DNA of 64,000 nucleotides from a virus (taxonomy: Duplodnaviria > Caudoviricetes). The number at the start of each line of letters is the position of its first letter. The stretch's first letter is position 1. A program made the position numbers and the translations under genes. Below, one piece after another: positions 57,841-63,828 of the stretch. Below the pieces are notes generated by a model, which searched no databases, was not told where the DNA came from, and was given only the letters and a program-made list of their open reading frames with translations. The stretch is taken from positions 154,067-218,066 of IMG/VR virus record IMGVR_UViG_3300021387_000796, one strand, 5' to 3'.

Positions 57841-58113
57841 TTAAAATAAATCTTTAATAGTTTCGACATATTCTTTCTTTGCAATATTAAATTGTGATTC
57901 ATCATATGTGGCAGTAATATCTTTTGCTTCATTGTTACTGCCCCAAATAATAGCATATCCTACAACATTCAAATCACCATGAAGTTCAGTCAATGCAATA
58001 AAATCATCATCTTCGTATGAATAATTAAGATTTATTAAAGATACGCCGAATTCTTCATAGTTATCAGCCATCTTAAAACTTATTTTATCCCAAGAAATAT
58101 TTTTAGTATTCAT
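57841..58113 (-). CDS. Hypothetical protein
   Basis: GAGG RBS, TAACTATTT upstream. Confidence 0.7.
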   Translation of the reverse strand: MNTKNISWDKISFKMADNYEEFGVSLINLNYSYEDDDFIALTELHGDLNVVGYAIIWGSNNEAKDITATYDESQFNIAKKEYVETIKDLF

Positions 58114-58312
58114 AAAATCCTCACTAGAATTAAATATGCTATAAATAGTTAAAACTTAGATTTAATCTCTAGGTCTTTTCGTTTAGAAGTTTGTTACAAA
58201 TACAGTATATAATTAATTATTTTTGTTTGTCAAGGAAAAATTATCACTTTTATAAATAAAAAAAAGACTTGATGTAAAATCAAGCCTTTTCAAGAAACAG
58301 TTTAATTAAAAA

Positions 58313-58639
58313 CTAATCTTTCTTTACCTTATCTACCGCAATACCGAAGATGATTGAAACAATAAGAATAACTGCACCTACGATTTCTGTGATTACTACA
58401 TCACTATAACCACCCAAAGTCAAAAGTACAGTTCCTGAGATTGTTGCACCAAGGAACAAATAACGCTTCCATCCAGTAAGTTCTGTCTTTTTTACTTGTT
58501 CAGCAATCGAAAGAGTTGCCCCGAAAACTACACTGATAATAGCACCGATTGTTACTAAAGGCACTTTTACTGTCAGTCCTACTACAGTTCCCAAAACAAT
58601 AAAGAGAACTCCAAGCAAATTTCTCCAAGAAAACTTCAT
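58313..58639 (-). CDS. Small 4-TM membrane protein (holin-like)
   Basis: Four hydrophobic segments, charged C-terminus, GGAGG RBS. Confidence 0.55.
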   Translation of the reverse strand: MKFSWRNLLGVLFIVLGTVVGLTVKVPLVTIGAIISVVFGATLSIAEQVKKTELTGWKRYLFLGATISGTVLLTLGGYSDVVITEIVGAVILIVSIIFGIAVDKVKKD

Positions 58640-58685
58640 AATATTTTCCTCCATATAAAATTAATTTCTTACTCTATAAATAGTT

Positions 58686-59276
58686 TTATTTTTTAATTTC
58701 GTCAATACCATTTTCCAAATATTTCTGAATATCCATAATTTCAATACTTGGTTTCCCATTATAATTCATATCCCAATGAAACCAAGCAGTAACTAAACAA
58801 CCGCATTTGAACTTCATTTCATCTTCATCGAATCTATCATACGCAATCTGTCTATCAAAAATATAAACAGTTTTAAGGTGATTCCATAAACCGTTTCTAT
58901 ATCGATTATATGCTCCAAAATAATTTGTACGACCAATCATAATTACATTGTCAGAAATCTGTTTTGCTTTTTCAACAAAATTATCCCAAAGACTAAATGG
59001 CGGATTAGTAACAATAGTGTCATAATGTTTATTGGAATAATCATCTTTAAGAAAATCATTTCCAAATATCAAATCTTTCTCTTCAAAATTATATCCTAAT
59101 GAATTAAAATAACCACTTATTCTTTTTGCTTCACCGCAAGCACATTCCAAAACTTTATCGGATTTTTTAATAAGATTTAATTTCTCTAATTCTATCACTA
59201 ATGGTTTTGGAGTTGGATAATAATCGTTCTTATTTCTTTCCTCTATTGTTTTCTTATTTGCATATGCTTTTCCCAT
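58686..59276 (-). CDS. DNA N6-adenine methyltransferase
   Basis: NDYYPTP, LECACG, DFL, VTNPPF, TAWFHW. Confidence 0.85.
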   Translation of the reverse strand: MGKAYANKKTIEERNKNDYYPTPKPLVIELEKLNLIKKSDKVLECACGEAKRISGYFNSLGYNFEEKDLIFGNDFLKDDYSNKHYDTIVTNPPFSLWDNFVEKAKQISDNVIMIGRTNYFGAYNRYRNGLWNHLKTVYIFDRQIAYDRFDEDEMKFKCGCLVTAWFHWDMNYNGKPSIEIMDIQKYLENGIDEIKK

Positions 59277-59278
59277 AA

Positions 59279-59551
59279 TTACAATCCTTTAACATTTAAA
59301 TTTGCAACATCTCTTAATGGAATTTCTTTACCTTTCTCATAAGACATATAATCCAATACACCTTTTTTATAGGCTCTCAAACAAGATTTATATAAATGGT
59401 CTTTTACCCAATCAGTTATTTTTTGTATTTCATCCTCGTAATCTTTTATATATAAACTTAAATAACTTAATTCATAATTCGTTCTTTCTCTTGCGAAATT
59501 TTCTGCATTTTCCAATAATAAAGTTGGAATACAAGTTTCAACATCTTTCAT
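59279..59551 (-). CDS. Hypothetical protein
   Basis: GAGGTG RBS, in operon. Confidence 0.65.
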   Translation of the reverse strand: MKDVETCIPTLLLENAENFARERTNYELSYLSLYIKDYEDEIQKITDWVKDHLYKSCLRAYKKGVLDYMSYEKGKEIPLRDVANLNVKGL

Positions 59552-59574
59552 CTACAAATCACCTCAAATATACT

Positions 59575-59850
59575 CTAAAACCCACCGTAATCTTTCAGCA
59601 TATTTTTCATCATATAAATTTTATCGGCATAATCTTTGAACATCTTAGAAATTCTATCAGTCTTTCCGTCTTCAATGTTCTGTACAATTTCATTCAAAAC
59701 CTTGTATGCTTTCTTTGGGTCGTTTTTAATATCATCAATAAATTCATCTGTAAACTTTGTATCAAACAGATATTTTTGGTCGTCTTCTGAAAAATTATCT
59801 ACAGTTGAAAACAATACTGAATAAACACCTTTTGCATTATATTTTGCCAT
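59575..59850 (-). CDS. Hypothetical protein
   Basis: GGAGG RBS, in operon. Confidence 0.7.
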   Translation of the reverse strand: MAKYNAKGVYSVLFSTVDNFSEDDQKYLFDTKFTDEFIDDIKNDPKKAYKVLNEIVQNIEDGKTDRISKMFKDYADKIYMMKNMLKDYGGF

Positions 59851-59852
59851 AT

Positions 59853-60272
59853 TTATTTCACCTCCACAATTTCAAACCCTTTTAACACGAGTTCATCCAA
59901 TTCTTTATCTTTATCAGAATACCAATTTTGTGGGTCACCTAAAATAGAATACATCAATTTTCTTATAAAAGCAAACAACCTAATCCAATCAGAAATTCCA
60001 CTACAGATATGATAATACGAATCTTTTTCCGCCTCATCACCTAAAGATTTATCATAATCTTCTCCATAAAACCACCAATGTGTACAGAAATCCCATTTCC
60101 AATGTACTTCTGCTATAAATTTCTTTTCATGAATATCCGAACAATCACTTGTCCAAGAAGTTGCTTGATAGATTATAAAATCACAAAAGTATTCATCTAA
60201 CATTTTAATTTCAACTTCAAAAATAGGATATTTATATGAATCATCTGTGATATTTTTTAACCAATATTTCAT
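59853..60272 (-). CDS. Hypothetical protein
   Basis: 139 aa, in operon. Confidence 0.7.
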   Translation of the reverse strand: MKYWLKNITDDSYKYPIFEVEIKMLDEYFCDFIIYQATSWTSDCSDIHEKKFIAEVHWKWDFCTHWWFYGEDYDKSLGDEAEKDSYYHICSGISDWIRLFAFIRKLMYSILGDPQNWYSDKDKELDELVLKGFEIVEVK

Positions 60273-60280
60273 AACCCTTC

Positions 60281-61231
60281 CTATAAATCAAACAAATCTT
60301 TTTTCATTTCATCATCATTTATCTTTATGATTTTCGCATTAATCTTTTCAAATTCATTCAAGAAAGATTTATGCTTATCATCATAAACATAAACAATTTC
60401 CGTATCATTATTCATTCCGTCAAACTTCCCATTTAGTATATTATGAACATGAAGATTATTTTTATATTCAAACGGATAACTTTGTACACCTACATCATGA
60501 CAAGCATGACACAACTCATCTTCATTTCTTGTACTACCGCAAATAACCTCATTGTAATAATTGCTCTTGTTCACCAATTCATTCAGATTATCGACCAATC
60601 CTTTTCTATCCAAATCAGATTCAACAACGATTATTTTATGTGGTTTATTTACATAATCCTTTCCTAAATATCTAGCCGAAATAAGAGAACGATTTATCCA
60701 TTTACTCATGTTTTTTCCACTACCATTAAGACTATCATAAATCTTGAACGGATATGTTACTTCATAAGGGTCTACTCCTTTAGGAAGATTCGTCATTAAA
60801 GATTCACAACCTTTAGTATATCTCTTAATCTCTTCCTTCATAACAGTCCAAGTTTTATGAGTTTTGTAATAATTCTTCAATTTGAAATGAGCGGTCTTAC
60901 AATAATATTTCTGACCATCATTCAACATCACTTCACCACAAAATTCATTCAATCTTGTACCAATCCCCATTCCTTGATAATCAGGTAACACTACCAACCT
61001 ATGACCCATCCAAAAATCCCTAATATCTCCGTTTGGCAAAAGTAGCATTGCTCTGAATCCTACAAGAATATCACCCCAATAGCATATGAAAACCCTACAT
61101 GGTGGTAAATTTGCTTCTTGTGTCAGATAATGATACTGCCTAAATATTTTCCAAAGGTCTTCTTTCTTTGAGTTGTCAGCGACCTCGTAGACTGACAACT
61201 CAATACTTTTTTTAGGTCTACCCCTCTGCAA
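60281..61231 (-). CDS. GNAT acetyltransferase domain (probably expressed as a -1 frameshift fusion to the upstream ATPase)
   Basis: WKIFRQYHYL, HRLVVLPDYQGMGIG acetyl-CoA motif; no good start or RBS of its own. Confidence 0.8.
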   Translation of the reverse strand: MQRGRPKKSIELSVYEVADNSKKEDLWKIFRQYHYLTQEANLPPCRVFICYWGDILVGFRAMLLLPNGDIRDFWMGHRLVVLPDYQGMGIGTRLNEFCGEVMLNDGQKYYCKTAHFKLKNYYKTHKTWTVMKEEIKRYTKGCESLMTNLPKGVDPYEVTYPFKIYDSLNGSGKNMSKWINRSLISARYLGKDYVNKPHKIIVVESDLDRKGLVDNLNELVNKSNYYNEVICGSTRNEDELCHACHDVGVQSYPFEYKNNLHVHNILNGKFDGMNNDTEIVYVYDDKHKSFLNEFEKINAKIIKINDDEMKKDLFDL

Positions 61232-61857
61232 TCATAAACTTTTTCATCATCCAAATCTATTACAATATCAGGTTCCAAATAATCAATATAATCTTTATGA
61301 CATGAACAGAACACAACCTTCTTCAAATTATGTTTTACTATATATTTCTTTATTCCCAAAACCGTACTAATTGCTACATTTCTATCTACAGTTGAAGTAA
61401 ATTCATCAAAACACATTTCACTCTGAATATTAAGTGCTAAATCGGCACGAAATCCTTCACCCACAGAAAGTACATTTCTAGGTCTACACCATGTAGGAAC
61501 AGTAGATAATCCAACGGATGCCAATCTATCCATACAATCTTCTTTATCTGTAAAATCAAAATTAGAAATTACAGACTTGGTGTTATCATAACTTCTGAAT
61601 TCTTTTGAATAAAATGGAAATTCTTTAAGAAGTTGTGATTTACCTTTTCCGCTAGAACCAGTAATTACGCAGATTTTATAATCAATTTCATTCAAAACTT
61701 TTGGTAATTTGTAAGGATAAAATTTACTTTCCCCTAAAAACTCATAATCAAAATACGATTGAGCCAATTGAGTATATTCATCACAAGGGATTTTTGAAAC
61801 CAAAGGTTCTTCTTTATGTTGTAGAACACTTAAAATTTTACAATCAGAATATGTCAT
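61123..61857 (-). CDS. ABC-type ATPase
   Basis: GSSGKGKS, LSVGE signature, FDEFTSTVD, SCH. Confidence 0.85.
   Translation of the reverse strand: MTYSDCKILSVLQHKEEPLVSKIPCDEYTQLAQSYFDYEFLGESKFYPYKLPKVLNEIDYKICVITGSSGKGKSQLLKEFPFYSKEFRSYDNTKSVISNFDFTDKEDCMDRLASVGLSTVPTWCRPRNVLSVGEGFRADLALNIQSEMCFDEFTSTVDRNVAISTVLGIKKYIVKHNLKKVVFCSCHKDYIDYLEPDIVIDLDDEKVYDCRGVDLKKVLSCQSTRSLTTQRKKTFGKYLGSIII
61168..61226 (-). promoter_or_regulatory. Programmed -1 ribosomal frameshift signal
   Basis: GAGGGG internal SD, in-frame A_AAA_AAA (61213-61207), 12-bp hairpin TTGAGTTGTCAG/CTGACAACTCAA. Confidence 0.75.
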
Positions 61858-61972
61858 ATTTTTCTCCATTTAGAAAAATTATAAAACAAATACATTCATT
61901 ATGTCAAGGAAAATTAATAAAAAAAAAGACAGTCCATTTTGAACTGTCTTACAAAGAACGAATTATATTTAA

Positions 61973-62215
61973 TTACTCTTCGTCATCTTCAGTTGTTTCT
62001 TTTGTAATTTCTTCATCTTCTGTTTCAACAACTACATCTTCATCTTTGACATCAATTACAATTTCTTCAACTTTTTCTTCTTTCTTTGGTTCTTCTACAA
62101 TTGGTGTTTCAACTGCATCTTCCTTTACATCAACAATAGGAAATGTATTTGAAAAACTTACAACTTCACCATTTAAAGATACTTTGTTTGCATTCTTCAT
62201 AAAATCATTTGCCAT
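61973..62215 (-). CDS. Acidic low-complexity protein
   Basis: GGAGG RBS; N-terminus resembles that of 62465..62827. Confidence 0.7.
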   Translation of the reverse strand: MANDFMKNANKVSLNGEVVSFSNTFPIVDVKEDAVETPIVEEPKKEEKVEEIVIDVKDEDVVVETEDEEITKETTEDDEE

Positions 62216-62239
62216 TTTTATAAATCCTCCATATAAAAT

Positions 62240-62443
62240 TTAATCTGAATATTTTTTACCGTTTTCCCAATAATCTGAAGAAATCATTACACCTACCGTG
62301 TATCTTCCTTCATAATTCATTGAAATCTGTTTTGCCAATTTAAACGCTTTAGAATATGTTTCAAACTCATTTATACATCCGCACATTGAATCATCTAATT
62401 GAACACCTTCATCTAAATCCATCACATAAAATATCGCACCCAT
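62240..62443 (-). CDS. Hypothetical protein
   Basis: GAGG RBS. Confidence 0.65.
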   Translation of the reverse strand: MGAIFYVMDLDEGVQLDDSMCGCINEFETYSKAFKLAKQISMNYEGRYTVGVMISSDYWENGKKYSD

Positions 62444-62874: not shown

Positions 62875-63120
62875 AACGGTTTGATTGAGCAATGGTATAA
62901 AACAAGTTCTATTAACTCAAAAAACTTTGAAACCGTGACCTTTAATGTTCAATTTAGTTCTAGTTTAATTCCTAATGGTACTTTTGGGTCACTTTATGAT
63001 AGTTCGGCAGATAGTACGACTGTAGTTCAATTAAGAAGTATTTCTAATACACAGGGTCAAATTAAAAATGCAACTTCTTCAACTGTAACTAATGCATTTG
63101 CTTTTTTTAGAGGGTATTAA
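62875..63120 (+). other. Silent tail-fibre tip cassette 1 (gp53-like C-terminal domain)
   Basis: NGLIEQWY...VTFNVQF...FFRGY*; in-frame stop two codons upstream, no RBS. Confidence 0.75.
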
Positions 63121-63122
63121 CG

Positions 63123-63371
63123 AACGGTTTAATTGAACAAGACTATGTTTATAAAAATACTGTCACAAGCGATTCTCAAGTTGAACAAACAATTAATTAT
63201 CTAGTGTATTTGCCAAGTGCTGATGATGGTTTTATACAAATTACAAGAGAAAGTACCCAAACAAATAGTGAAAAAAATTATGCTTGGATTAAATCTCATA
63301 CCGAAAAAGATTGCACTTTTATTTATAGACGAAATAATTATGGTAATGTATACATCAGTGTACGAAATTAG
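63123..63371 (+). other. Silent tail-fibre tip cassette 2
   Basis: Open frame NGLIEQDYVYKNTVTSDSQVEQTINYLVYLP...VYISVRN*, with no start codon at its 5' end (missed by the ORF track). Confidence 0.7.
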
Positions 63372-63373
63372 TG

Positions 63374-63598
63374 AACGGTTTGATTGAACAATGTGGACAA
63401 TCAACATCCATGATTAATAATACTACTATTACATTTCCAATAGTTATGTCCAACACTGATTATTGGGCGATTTGTGGAATGTGGTCTTATAATGCCACAA
63501 GTGCTAGTGACTATAATGCTAACTCTTTGGTGTTGAAACAATTGACTGATTCAATGTATGTTTATAAGACAAATAAATGGATGGTTTTGGGTTATTAA
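63374..63598 (+). other. Tail-fibre tip cassette 3
   Basis: NGLIEQCG..TITFPIVM..WMVLGY*. Confidence 0.75.
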
Positions 63599-63828
63599 TA
63601 TCCTATCGCAAACCATCTAACCGTTAAATCATTGATAGAAACAGTATATTTGAAATTATCTTTGGTTATAGTATATGCGAATGTAGTATAGTAAACTGGA
63701 TTCTGTGTTGATTGTCTCTCTTGTGAAGCATATACAACAGGTGGTTTCAAGAAACTAATAACATAATCATATTGATTCTCTCCTGATGGTTGGTTAATAA
63801 GACTTCCCCATTGTTCAATCAAACCGTT
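63595..63828 (-). other. Silent tail-fibre tip cassette 4 (inverted)
   Basis: NGLIEQWG..YVISFLKPP..WFAIGY*; in-frame TGA a few codons upstream. Confidence 0.75.

Follow-up and report, generated by a model that had tools for sequence, protein, structure and literature searches.

A single gene can encode two versions of an ATPase at a fixed ratio, as in Escherichia coli dnaX (tau/gamma), where a stem-loop lies downstream of the shift site and a Shine-Dalgarno (SD)-like element upstream of it. A -1 shift is also conserved in the lambda G/GT tail-assembly chaperone, which is annotated as two open reading frames (ORFs), and there the motif varies while its position is fixed. Here we describe a gene of a 218-kb Caudoviricetes phage (IMG/VR record IMGVR_UViG_3300021387_000796) which resembles both. 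It lies in a 64-kb stretch of that genome, referred to below as the window, and the features of the gene and its neighbourhood are on the minus strand. It is very probably a single recoded gene, in which a programmed -1 ribosomal frameshift would produce a 244-amino acid (aa) ATPase together with a 525-aa ATPase-GNAT protein. The original prediction for this locus was of such a shift, fusing an ATPase to a GNAT acetyltransferase, and it is now strongly supported by about 150 distinct homologous junctions.

The heptamer of the window gene belongs, like that of dnaX, to the A-rich A_AAA_AAR class (PMC4066793). The shifted product of dnaX is the shorter one, whereas the shift in the window would add a whole enzyme domain; in the window's family, moreover, the SD-like element is without frameshift-specific conservation, and the spacer to the stem is 3 nucleotides (nt). 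The orfA-orfB pair of the insertion sequences (IS) IS3/IS911 is similar in that a -1 shift takes place at A_AAA_AAG, A_AAA_AAA or G_GGA_AAR ahead of a hairpin or pseudoknot (PMC4066793 for motif usage), and also in that the 0 frame gives a short product, the long fusion bears the catalytic domain and the second ORF has no start of its own. Unlike these, the window gene is a phage enzyme gene rather than a transposase, and in most other lineages it is a plain in-frame fusion. It differs from lambda G/GT in belonging to an unrelated gene family with an unrelated role, and in that the frameshift of its family derives from in-frame fusions and is tied to a hairpin. Fusions of the protein family PHROG 11143, such as those of Tenacibaculum phage pT24 and phiE255 (gp29), have both domains in the same order; these are single in-frame ORFs, whereas the window gene requires a -1 shift and has an extra 120-aa C-terminal domain.

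The gene is made up of the following features (coordinates are those of the window):

61864..61867, minus strand: GGAG ribosome-binding site, read from the sequence, 6 nt before ATG 61857.
61123..61857, minus strand: 0-frame ORF for an ABC-type ATPase of 244 aa, with stop TGA at 61125-61123, matching PHROG 11143 positions 8-191.
61221..61226, minus strand: SD-like GAGGGG, 7 nt upstream of the heptamer, in codons for a conserved Arg-Gly.
61207..61213, minus strand: slippery heptamer A_AAA_AAA (CTA AAA AAA, 61215-61207), the predicted -1 shift site.
61168..61203, minus strand: predicted stimulatory hairpin, a perfect 12-base pair (bp) stem with a 12-nt loop, whose arms 61203-61192/61179-61168 are 100% complementary.
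60653..61207, minus strand: GNAT acetyltransferase domain in the -1 frame, residues 1-185 of the -1 segment, from Pfam, PHROG 11143 and a structure model.
60281..60652, minus strand: C-terminal alpha/beta domain in the -1 frame, residues 186-308, from the model, ending in ...KKDLFDL and the stop TAG 60283-60281.

Under the proposed mechanism, transcription would begin at the gene's own consensus promoter, and the gene would lead an operon in which a DNA methyltransferase is also encoded. The majority of ribosomes would stay in the 0 frame and release the 244-aa ABC-type ATPase. Some would pause with two Lys-tRNAs on A_AAA_AAA (61213-61207) while the 12-bp hairpin resists unwinding; both tRNAs would then re-pair one base back and translation would go on in the -1 frame, giving the 525-aa ATPase-GNAT with its extra C-terminal domain. 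We infer that the shift is ribosomal and not transcriptional, and likewise its efficiency. ABC ATPases act as ATP-sandwich dimers, and for this reason mixed ATPase/ATPase-GNAT dimers are expected; the two isoforms might co-assemble as a complex of fixed ratio.

The 0 frame across the overlap reads ...GAT TGC AGA GGG GTA GAC CTA AAA AAA GTA TTG AGT..., which places the run of seven A (A7) in phase. The predicted reading GAC CTA AAA AAA GTA, with an in-frame A_AAA_AAA at 61213-61207, is therefore borne out, and this is the sole in-phase X_XXY_YYZ heptamer of the 109-nt overlap. The final 27 codons of the ATPase ORF overlap the GNAT frame, a second ORF in the -1 frame which overlaps from 61231 and remains open to TAG 60283-60281. 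After the slip the reading becomes ...DLKK followed by SIELSVYE..., and the predicted transframe peptide is ...GVDLKK-SIELSVYEVADNSK.... From ATG 61857, the start at which homologues begin in the alignment with an equivalent M-x-Y, frame counts give 244 aa for the 0 frame and 217+308 = 525 aa for the transframe product, in agreement with the sizes of about 244 and about 525 aa first proposed. A_AAA_AAA is frequent in IS elements, and its heptamer class has been rated as efficient in E. coli (PMC4066793). The A7 run alone proves nothing, because the AT-rich window has 70 A7/T7 runs (vs 198 in dinucleotide shuffles, about a 3-fold depletion, which agrees with selection against slippery homopolymers in an AT-rich phage). 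As A7 is not rare, its significance comes from phase, hairpin and conservation.

To assess conservation, 210 loci (labelled L below) were gathered from IMG/VR, GTDB genomes and metagenomes, giving 154 distinct junctions, and both domains were placed by iterated profiles on stop-to-stop frames. At 92 of the 154 the two domains lie in one ORF, the natural in-frame fusions that had been suggested as a check among homologues; 60 have a -1 offset, one has a +1 offset and one an in-frame stop. Among deposited phages searched by tblastn, both domains are in one frame in Aeromonas PX29, Gordonia Jace, Arthrobacter EastWest, Nonlabens P12024S, Vibrio VmeM-32 and Tenacibaculum pT24, and are offset by -1 in Thomasclavelia TR-TP1/TP2, Streptococcus 315.4, phiNIH1.1, the Javan prophages and Oenococcus phages; two further -1 cases, Enterococcus 9184 and Lactococcus P335, came from the profile screen. 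The feature tables of the deposited phage records examined contain no slippage annotation, and the GNAT is either called from an internal start or uncalled. Three of the -1 cases (L089, L141 and L201) and the +1 case are different in kind, and L173 is broken. The three are truly split genes, with their own SD, ATG and added N-terminal peptide. They form a sub-lineage inside the frameshifted clade (L089:2636-2744, L141:785-890, L201:252-584), with a TAATG overlap and a new peptide M-x-x-YYYKSKI, and in L201 the two genes are separated by an inserted small ORF with a helix-turn-helix-like sequence.

Sequencing errors and mutations typically strike homopolymer runs, and in-frame fusions are numerous among the relatives of the gene, so the break might be an assembly error (a true A8) or a recent inactivating frameshift of a formerly fused gene. 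We regard this as scarcely credible. The A7 is kept both in L131 and L132, which are independent assemblies 98% identical to the window, and this removes assembly error; it is also kept in the 87%-identical L007/L008, so that an A8, named at the outset as a finding that could overturn the prediction, is not borne out by these assemblies. The same break is found at lower identity too and persists across clades at about 56% ATPase identity, with both halves intact and conserved. The breaks are almost all -1, at one site, and a co-varying hairpin goes with them.

This hairpin is the second element that points to recoding of the window gene. The stem begins 3 nt (GTA) past the heptamer, and the perfect 12-bp pairing predicted there (61168-61179/61192-61203) is present. 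An 81-nt stretch folds at -23.6 kcal/mol (z -2.7), and 2/200 shuffles fold as well. In L007/L008 the stem is preserved through a CAG/CTG to CCG/CGG double change, and both changes are synonymous in the GNAT frame. In a sister clade, one stem pair is seen as G-C, U-A and C-G. The 75 nt past the junction fold at a median of -19.0 kcal/mol in low-GC -1 genes (z -2.8, n=22) vs -3.9 kcal/mol in low-GC fused genes (z +0.9, n=14). The difference in fold energy gives Mann-Whitney p 2e-6 to 4e-6, and p 8e-10 for z-scores of all loci, but these p-values treat related sequences as independent and so overstate independence, the tree described below supporting only about four independent transitions.

The 5' arm always falls on the codons for strand beta-1 of the GNAT (I-x-L-x). 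The 3' arm is formed in the window by a clade-specific four-codon insert, and in most relatives, including the sister clade mentioned above, by codons around the conserved Trp of helix alpha-1. RNAalifold found no consensus structure in a codon alignment of all 47 window-like -1 junctions, and counting 13 pairs in a fixed register failed to tell frameshifted genes from fused ones (p 0.39); the free-energy comparison alone did so. Common structure and register signals are lacking because the stems use different 3' arms and registers across lineages.

The element upstream of the heptamer behaves differently. The original prediction placed an SD-like GAGGGG 7 nt upstream, and its position (61226-61221) stands, but a role as a signal cannot be ascribed to it. 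When the 24 nt that precede the motif are paired with the anti-SD, the median is -10.3 kcal/mol in fused and -7.3 kcal/mol in frameshifted genes; fused relatives pair as well or better, and GAGGGG was rejected as a frameshift-specific signal. Fused relatives have an equally strong motif, which encodes the conserved Arg-Gly and may be no more than those two codons. The element may still help shifting, and SD-like stimulators have been sought 6-17 nt upstream of frameshift motifs (PMC4066793).

The GNAT might instead be a separate gene, started at TTG 61231, at M54 (residue 54 in the -1 segment) or through coupling with the ATPase frame, with the A run and hairpin incidental. TTG 61231 does open the -1 ORF, public gene callers predict GNAT proteins from M54, and the truly split L089, L141 and L201 show that separate chains can function. 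Against this, TTG 61231 is the only start of the -1 frame upstream, is without an SD, and results from the codons (GAT TGY) of a conserved Asp-Cys in the ATPase frame; the same TGA-TTG pair is present in Thomasclavelia phage TR-TP1. The next ATG is that of M54, and since the GNAT fold begins at residue 1-2, a start there would delete strands beta-1 to beta-3. Many relatives have no start codon in the -1 frame before the conserved strand beta-1, and in many -1 junctions this frame opens 1-3 codons before the motif without ATG, GTG or TTG. Independent genes would also not require the bias of 60 -1 junctions vs one +1. We therefore consider separate genes very unlikely, and the predicted continuation of the -1 frame as KKSIELSVYE into a GNAT ORF without a credible start holds.

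Shift-prone motifs, which most of the -1 junctions carry, were counted at the codons aligned with the window's A run. Distinct junctions numbered 22 for G_GGG_G, 15 for A_AAA_AAA or longer A runs, eight for G_GGA_AAA and two for C_CCC_C, with one each for A_AAA_AAG (Enterococcus 9184), A_AAG_GGC (Oenococcus), T_TTT_TTT and T_TTA_AAA. Nine -1 junctions are listed without a motif, two of which (L039/L040) hold an in-frame A_AAA_AAA just beyond the scan range.

These motifs bear on transcriptional slippage, in which RNA polymerase would add one A at A7 in some transcripts and the same two proteins would result. A7 and T7 are avoided in genes partly for this cause (PMC4066793), and A7 is about 3-fold depleted in the window. 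Runs of 7-10 A occur at the junction in the 15 distinct relatives, with A9-A10 in L042, L043, L083 and Bathyarchaeia genomes. Efficient slippage by bacterial RNA polymerase usually takes runs of at least nine, which counts against this explanation for the window. Many relatives, moreover, have motifs which cannot slip at transcription (G_GGA_AAA, A_AAG_GGC and G5), and slippage leaves unexplained a hairpin that is frameshift-specific and shows compensatory changes, the hallmark of a ribosomal stimulator. Transcriptional slippage is thus unlikely, and ribosomal frameshifting is the preferred explanation.

Besides the non-independence behind the hairpin p-values, several points weigh against a programmed ribosomal shift. 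The A7 run could permit some slippage by RNA polymerase. The 3-nt spacer of the window is shorter than the 5-6 nt of its relatives and is also below the usual range; with such a spacer, the base of the stem would have to be open at the moment of the shift. The predicted hairpin is weak or absent in some frameshifted lineages (the TR-TP1 group, L030 and L032), and the SD-like GAGGGG is not frameshift-specific. As a few lineages are fully split (L089, L141 and L201), the GNAT can work as a separate chain. G_GGG_G, the most frequent motif among relatives, does not form a canonical heptamer, and what looked like its activity in E. coli has been attributed to internal initiation of an SD-like kind (PMC4066793). 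Such initiation at a conserved AUU/AUC two codons downstream is a real alternative for the G_GGG_G subclass only, and not for the window.

Mapped onto a tree of 143 ATPase domains, the frameshift state takes no fewer than four changes; well-supported branches force three of these, and shuffled labels need about 44. In a large clade of big Firmicutes-type phages, which includes the window, 34 plus 4 rows are frameshifted, and identity has fallen to about 56%. The second clade consists of siphophages of lactic acid bacteria and of elements in Bathyarchaeia genomes, the latter with the junction GTA AAA AAA AAC, and Enterococcus 9184 and L030 stand apart. Given these changes and the depth of the frameshifted clades, the frameshift state is old, recurrent and maintained, and on the tree it arose several times from in-frame fusions. 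The frameshifted form is found in the Bathyarchaeia genomes of L099, L103, L110, L112, L119, L122 and L123, and the uncultured-archaeon genome OY970286.1 has two copies (L099 and L110).

The three states of the gene would differ in their products. Fused lineages would make the long protein only and split lineages two chains, whereas frameshifted lineages would make the ATPase in excess over ATPase-GNAT.

Both halves of the gene match a single protein family. In the 357-position profile of PHROG 11143, the ATPase ORF matches positions 8-191 (E 1.9e-46) and the -1 ORF positions 200-326 (E 5.9e-22). The DNA encodes the two domains in overlapping frames, so they can be in one polypeptide only if the -1 shift occurs. 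Pfam gives only weak P-loop/ABC matches for the ATPase ORF; Walker A (GSSGKGKS), the signature (LSVGEGFR), Walker B (FDEFTS) and the H-loop (SCH) are invariant motifs in an alignment of 24 homologues. In the model of a fused homologue, with a predicted local distance difference test score (pLDDT) of 82, the N-terminal half matches ABC nucleotide-binding domains. The -1 ORF matches GNAT families above their Pfam cut-offs (Acetyltransf_7, E 1.6e-07; Acetyltransf_1, E 3.2e-07), and its product has the acetyl-CoA-binding Q/R-x-x-G-x-G motif as YQGMGIGTRL. Its model (pLDDT 80.5) has a GNAT fold at residues 1-185, with Z 10-12 against many GNATs, and strand beta-1 at residues 2-8 of the -1 segment, directly past the shift site. 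No close relative with a solved structure emerged from PDB sequence searches.

The C-terminal domain (residues 186-308, about 120 aa) is modelled as alpha/beta with pLDDT mostly 84-97. It is confined to the closest relatives of the window, in which the tail is conserved as LFDL/IFDL/LFDF. Pfam, PHROGs, an atlas feature search and an atlas shape search gave no family for it, and among PDB folds it had no match of its own, the GNAT filling the list. A role of the LFDL tail in binding a sliding clamp was also considered; a search of the 218-kb genome with PF00712, PF02768, PF02916 and PF09116, in which two controls were uninformative, yielded no clamp gene. The DLFDL tail had been proposed as a pointer to a Mom-like function, and no meaning could be attached to it. 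In L013:3136-5637 and L017:2774-5275, the -1 ORF runs for more than 830 codons, with a very large C-terminal extension after the GNAT.

With regard to function, a mechanistic analogy is offered by TmcA/NAT10-type enzymes, in which a P-loop ATPase is joined to a GNAT that acetylates a nucleic-acid base with ATP and acetyl-CoA. Their ATPase is helicase-like and not ABC, and their substrate is RNA. Mom of phage Mu is a GNAT-superfamily DNA-modifying enzyme (PMC7824862), and a passage of the same source citing Iyer et al. 2013 gives a computational prediction of Mom-like DNA base acylation for the ATPase-GNAT fusion family. From this prediction and from synteny, a Mom-like DNA-modifying function is plausible for the window's enzyme. 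We put ATP-dependent acylation of DNA at about an even chance; the enzyme would then acylate a DNA base as a functional analogue of Mu Mom. Production of the window's enzyme would, like that of Mom with its translational activator Com, be controlled at the level of translation. Mom itself has no ATPase, however, and the window has no com gene, control being predicted to be by frameshift instead of by an activator.

Gene neighbourhoods of relatives bear on this. In Rhodobacterales Mu-like prophages, a Com zinc-ribbon gene is directly upstream of the fused gene (6/52 neighbours; 39-41 bits, cut-off 22.9), and such an upstream gene was seen only in these fused relatives. In Burkholderia phage phiE255 (L210), the fused gene gp29 comes after tail-fibre genes, as mom does in Mu. 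It is followed directly by gp30 (L210:4005-4619), of the formyltransferase family, which is the same neighbour in two IMG/VR relatives and may supply or alter the acyl group. The phiE255 gp28 had no alignment to Mu Com and no Pfam match. ParB-N genes are upstream in phages of Streptococcus, Oenococcus and Leptospira, and methylases, a TET-associated glycosyltransferase and replication genes are found nearby elsewhere. In the window, the gene shares a predicted operon with an N6-adenine-type DNA methyltransferase; no Com match was found among the upstream ORFs, and a terminator and promoter intervene. BLASTP of the window's GNAT part against Mu Mom gave no significant similarity (best E 0.02 over 26 residues, at non-equivalent positions), ruling out membership of the Mom family by sequence.

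A more speculative proposal, which we make tentatively and consider rather doubtful, is that the frameshift is a stoichiometry device for a new ATP-driven DNA-base acyltransferase. Excess subunits lacking the GNAT and rare ATPase-GNAT would form asymmetric ABC dimers with a single acyltransferase, and in-frame fusions would have given rise to this arrangement on at least three occasions, also in Bathyarchaeia elements. Under this proposal, RNA pairing would leave a visible mark on the protein sequence, since the hairpin is made of codons for strand beta-1 and helix alpha-1 of the GNAT.

The surroundings of the gene in the window are as follows:

61926..61950, minus strand: terminator-like hairpin of intrinsic type, an 11-pair stem then TTTTTTTATT, ending the upstream gene.
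61878..61907, minus strand: predicted sigma-70-type promoter TTGACA-18-TATAAT, by consensus match only (12/12).
58261..60272, minus strand: rest of the predicted operon, from the ORF list, profile matches and the terminator.
60272-59853, 59850-59575 and 59551-59279, minus strand: three small ORFs of the operon, from the ORF list.
59276-58686, minus strand: N6-adenine-type DNA methyltransferase (phrog_799, E 5.9e-34; EcoRI_methylase, E 1.1e-05).
58654-58313, minus strand: small membrane ORF.
58291-58261, minus strand: operon-end terminator, 3.6 kb downstream of the upstream terminator/promoter pair.

The promoter (61907-61878) is the sole 12/12 sigma-70 consensus site within 58000-62300. Together with the two terminators, it is predicted to delimit a compact, tightly packed operon headed by the ATPase/GNAT gene. 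Near the end of the record, at 62881-63822 and on both strands, there are several ORFs of 75-79 aa in opposite orientations, which have an IEQ(W/C)G motif at the N-terminus and GY at the C-terminus in common. Two of these weakly match the C-terminal ends of tail-fibre/virion structural protein families (E ~1e-5), and the ORFs may be alternative tail-fibre tip cassettes.

Literature searches and phage feature tables gave no published report or database annotation of an ATPase-GNAT frameshift. The mechanism is of a known kind, and it is the ATPase-GNAT gene family that is newly added to it. If confirmed, this widespread case of recoding would join the short list of conserved phage frameshifts, so far dominated by tail-chaperone genes. 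A systematic error would also be put right in the annotation of phages of Streptococcus, Lactococcus, Oenococcus, Enterococcus and Thomasclavelia and of many phages from metagenomes, in which the GNAT half is missing or is called from an internal Met, truncating the fold. As three natural states exist (fused, frameshifted and split), the family lends itself well to studying why selection favours a fixed isoform ratio. The enzyme is the sole predicted ATP-dependent DNA-base acyltransferase of phages, and knowing that its active form is the transframe protein would be a precondition for expressing the enzyme and identifying the modification.

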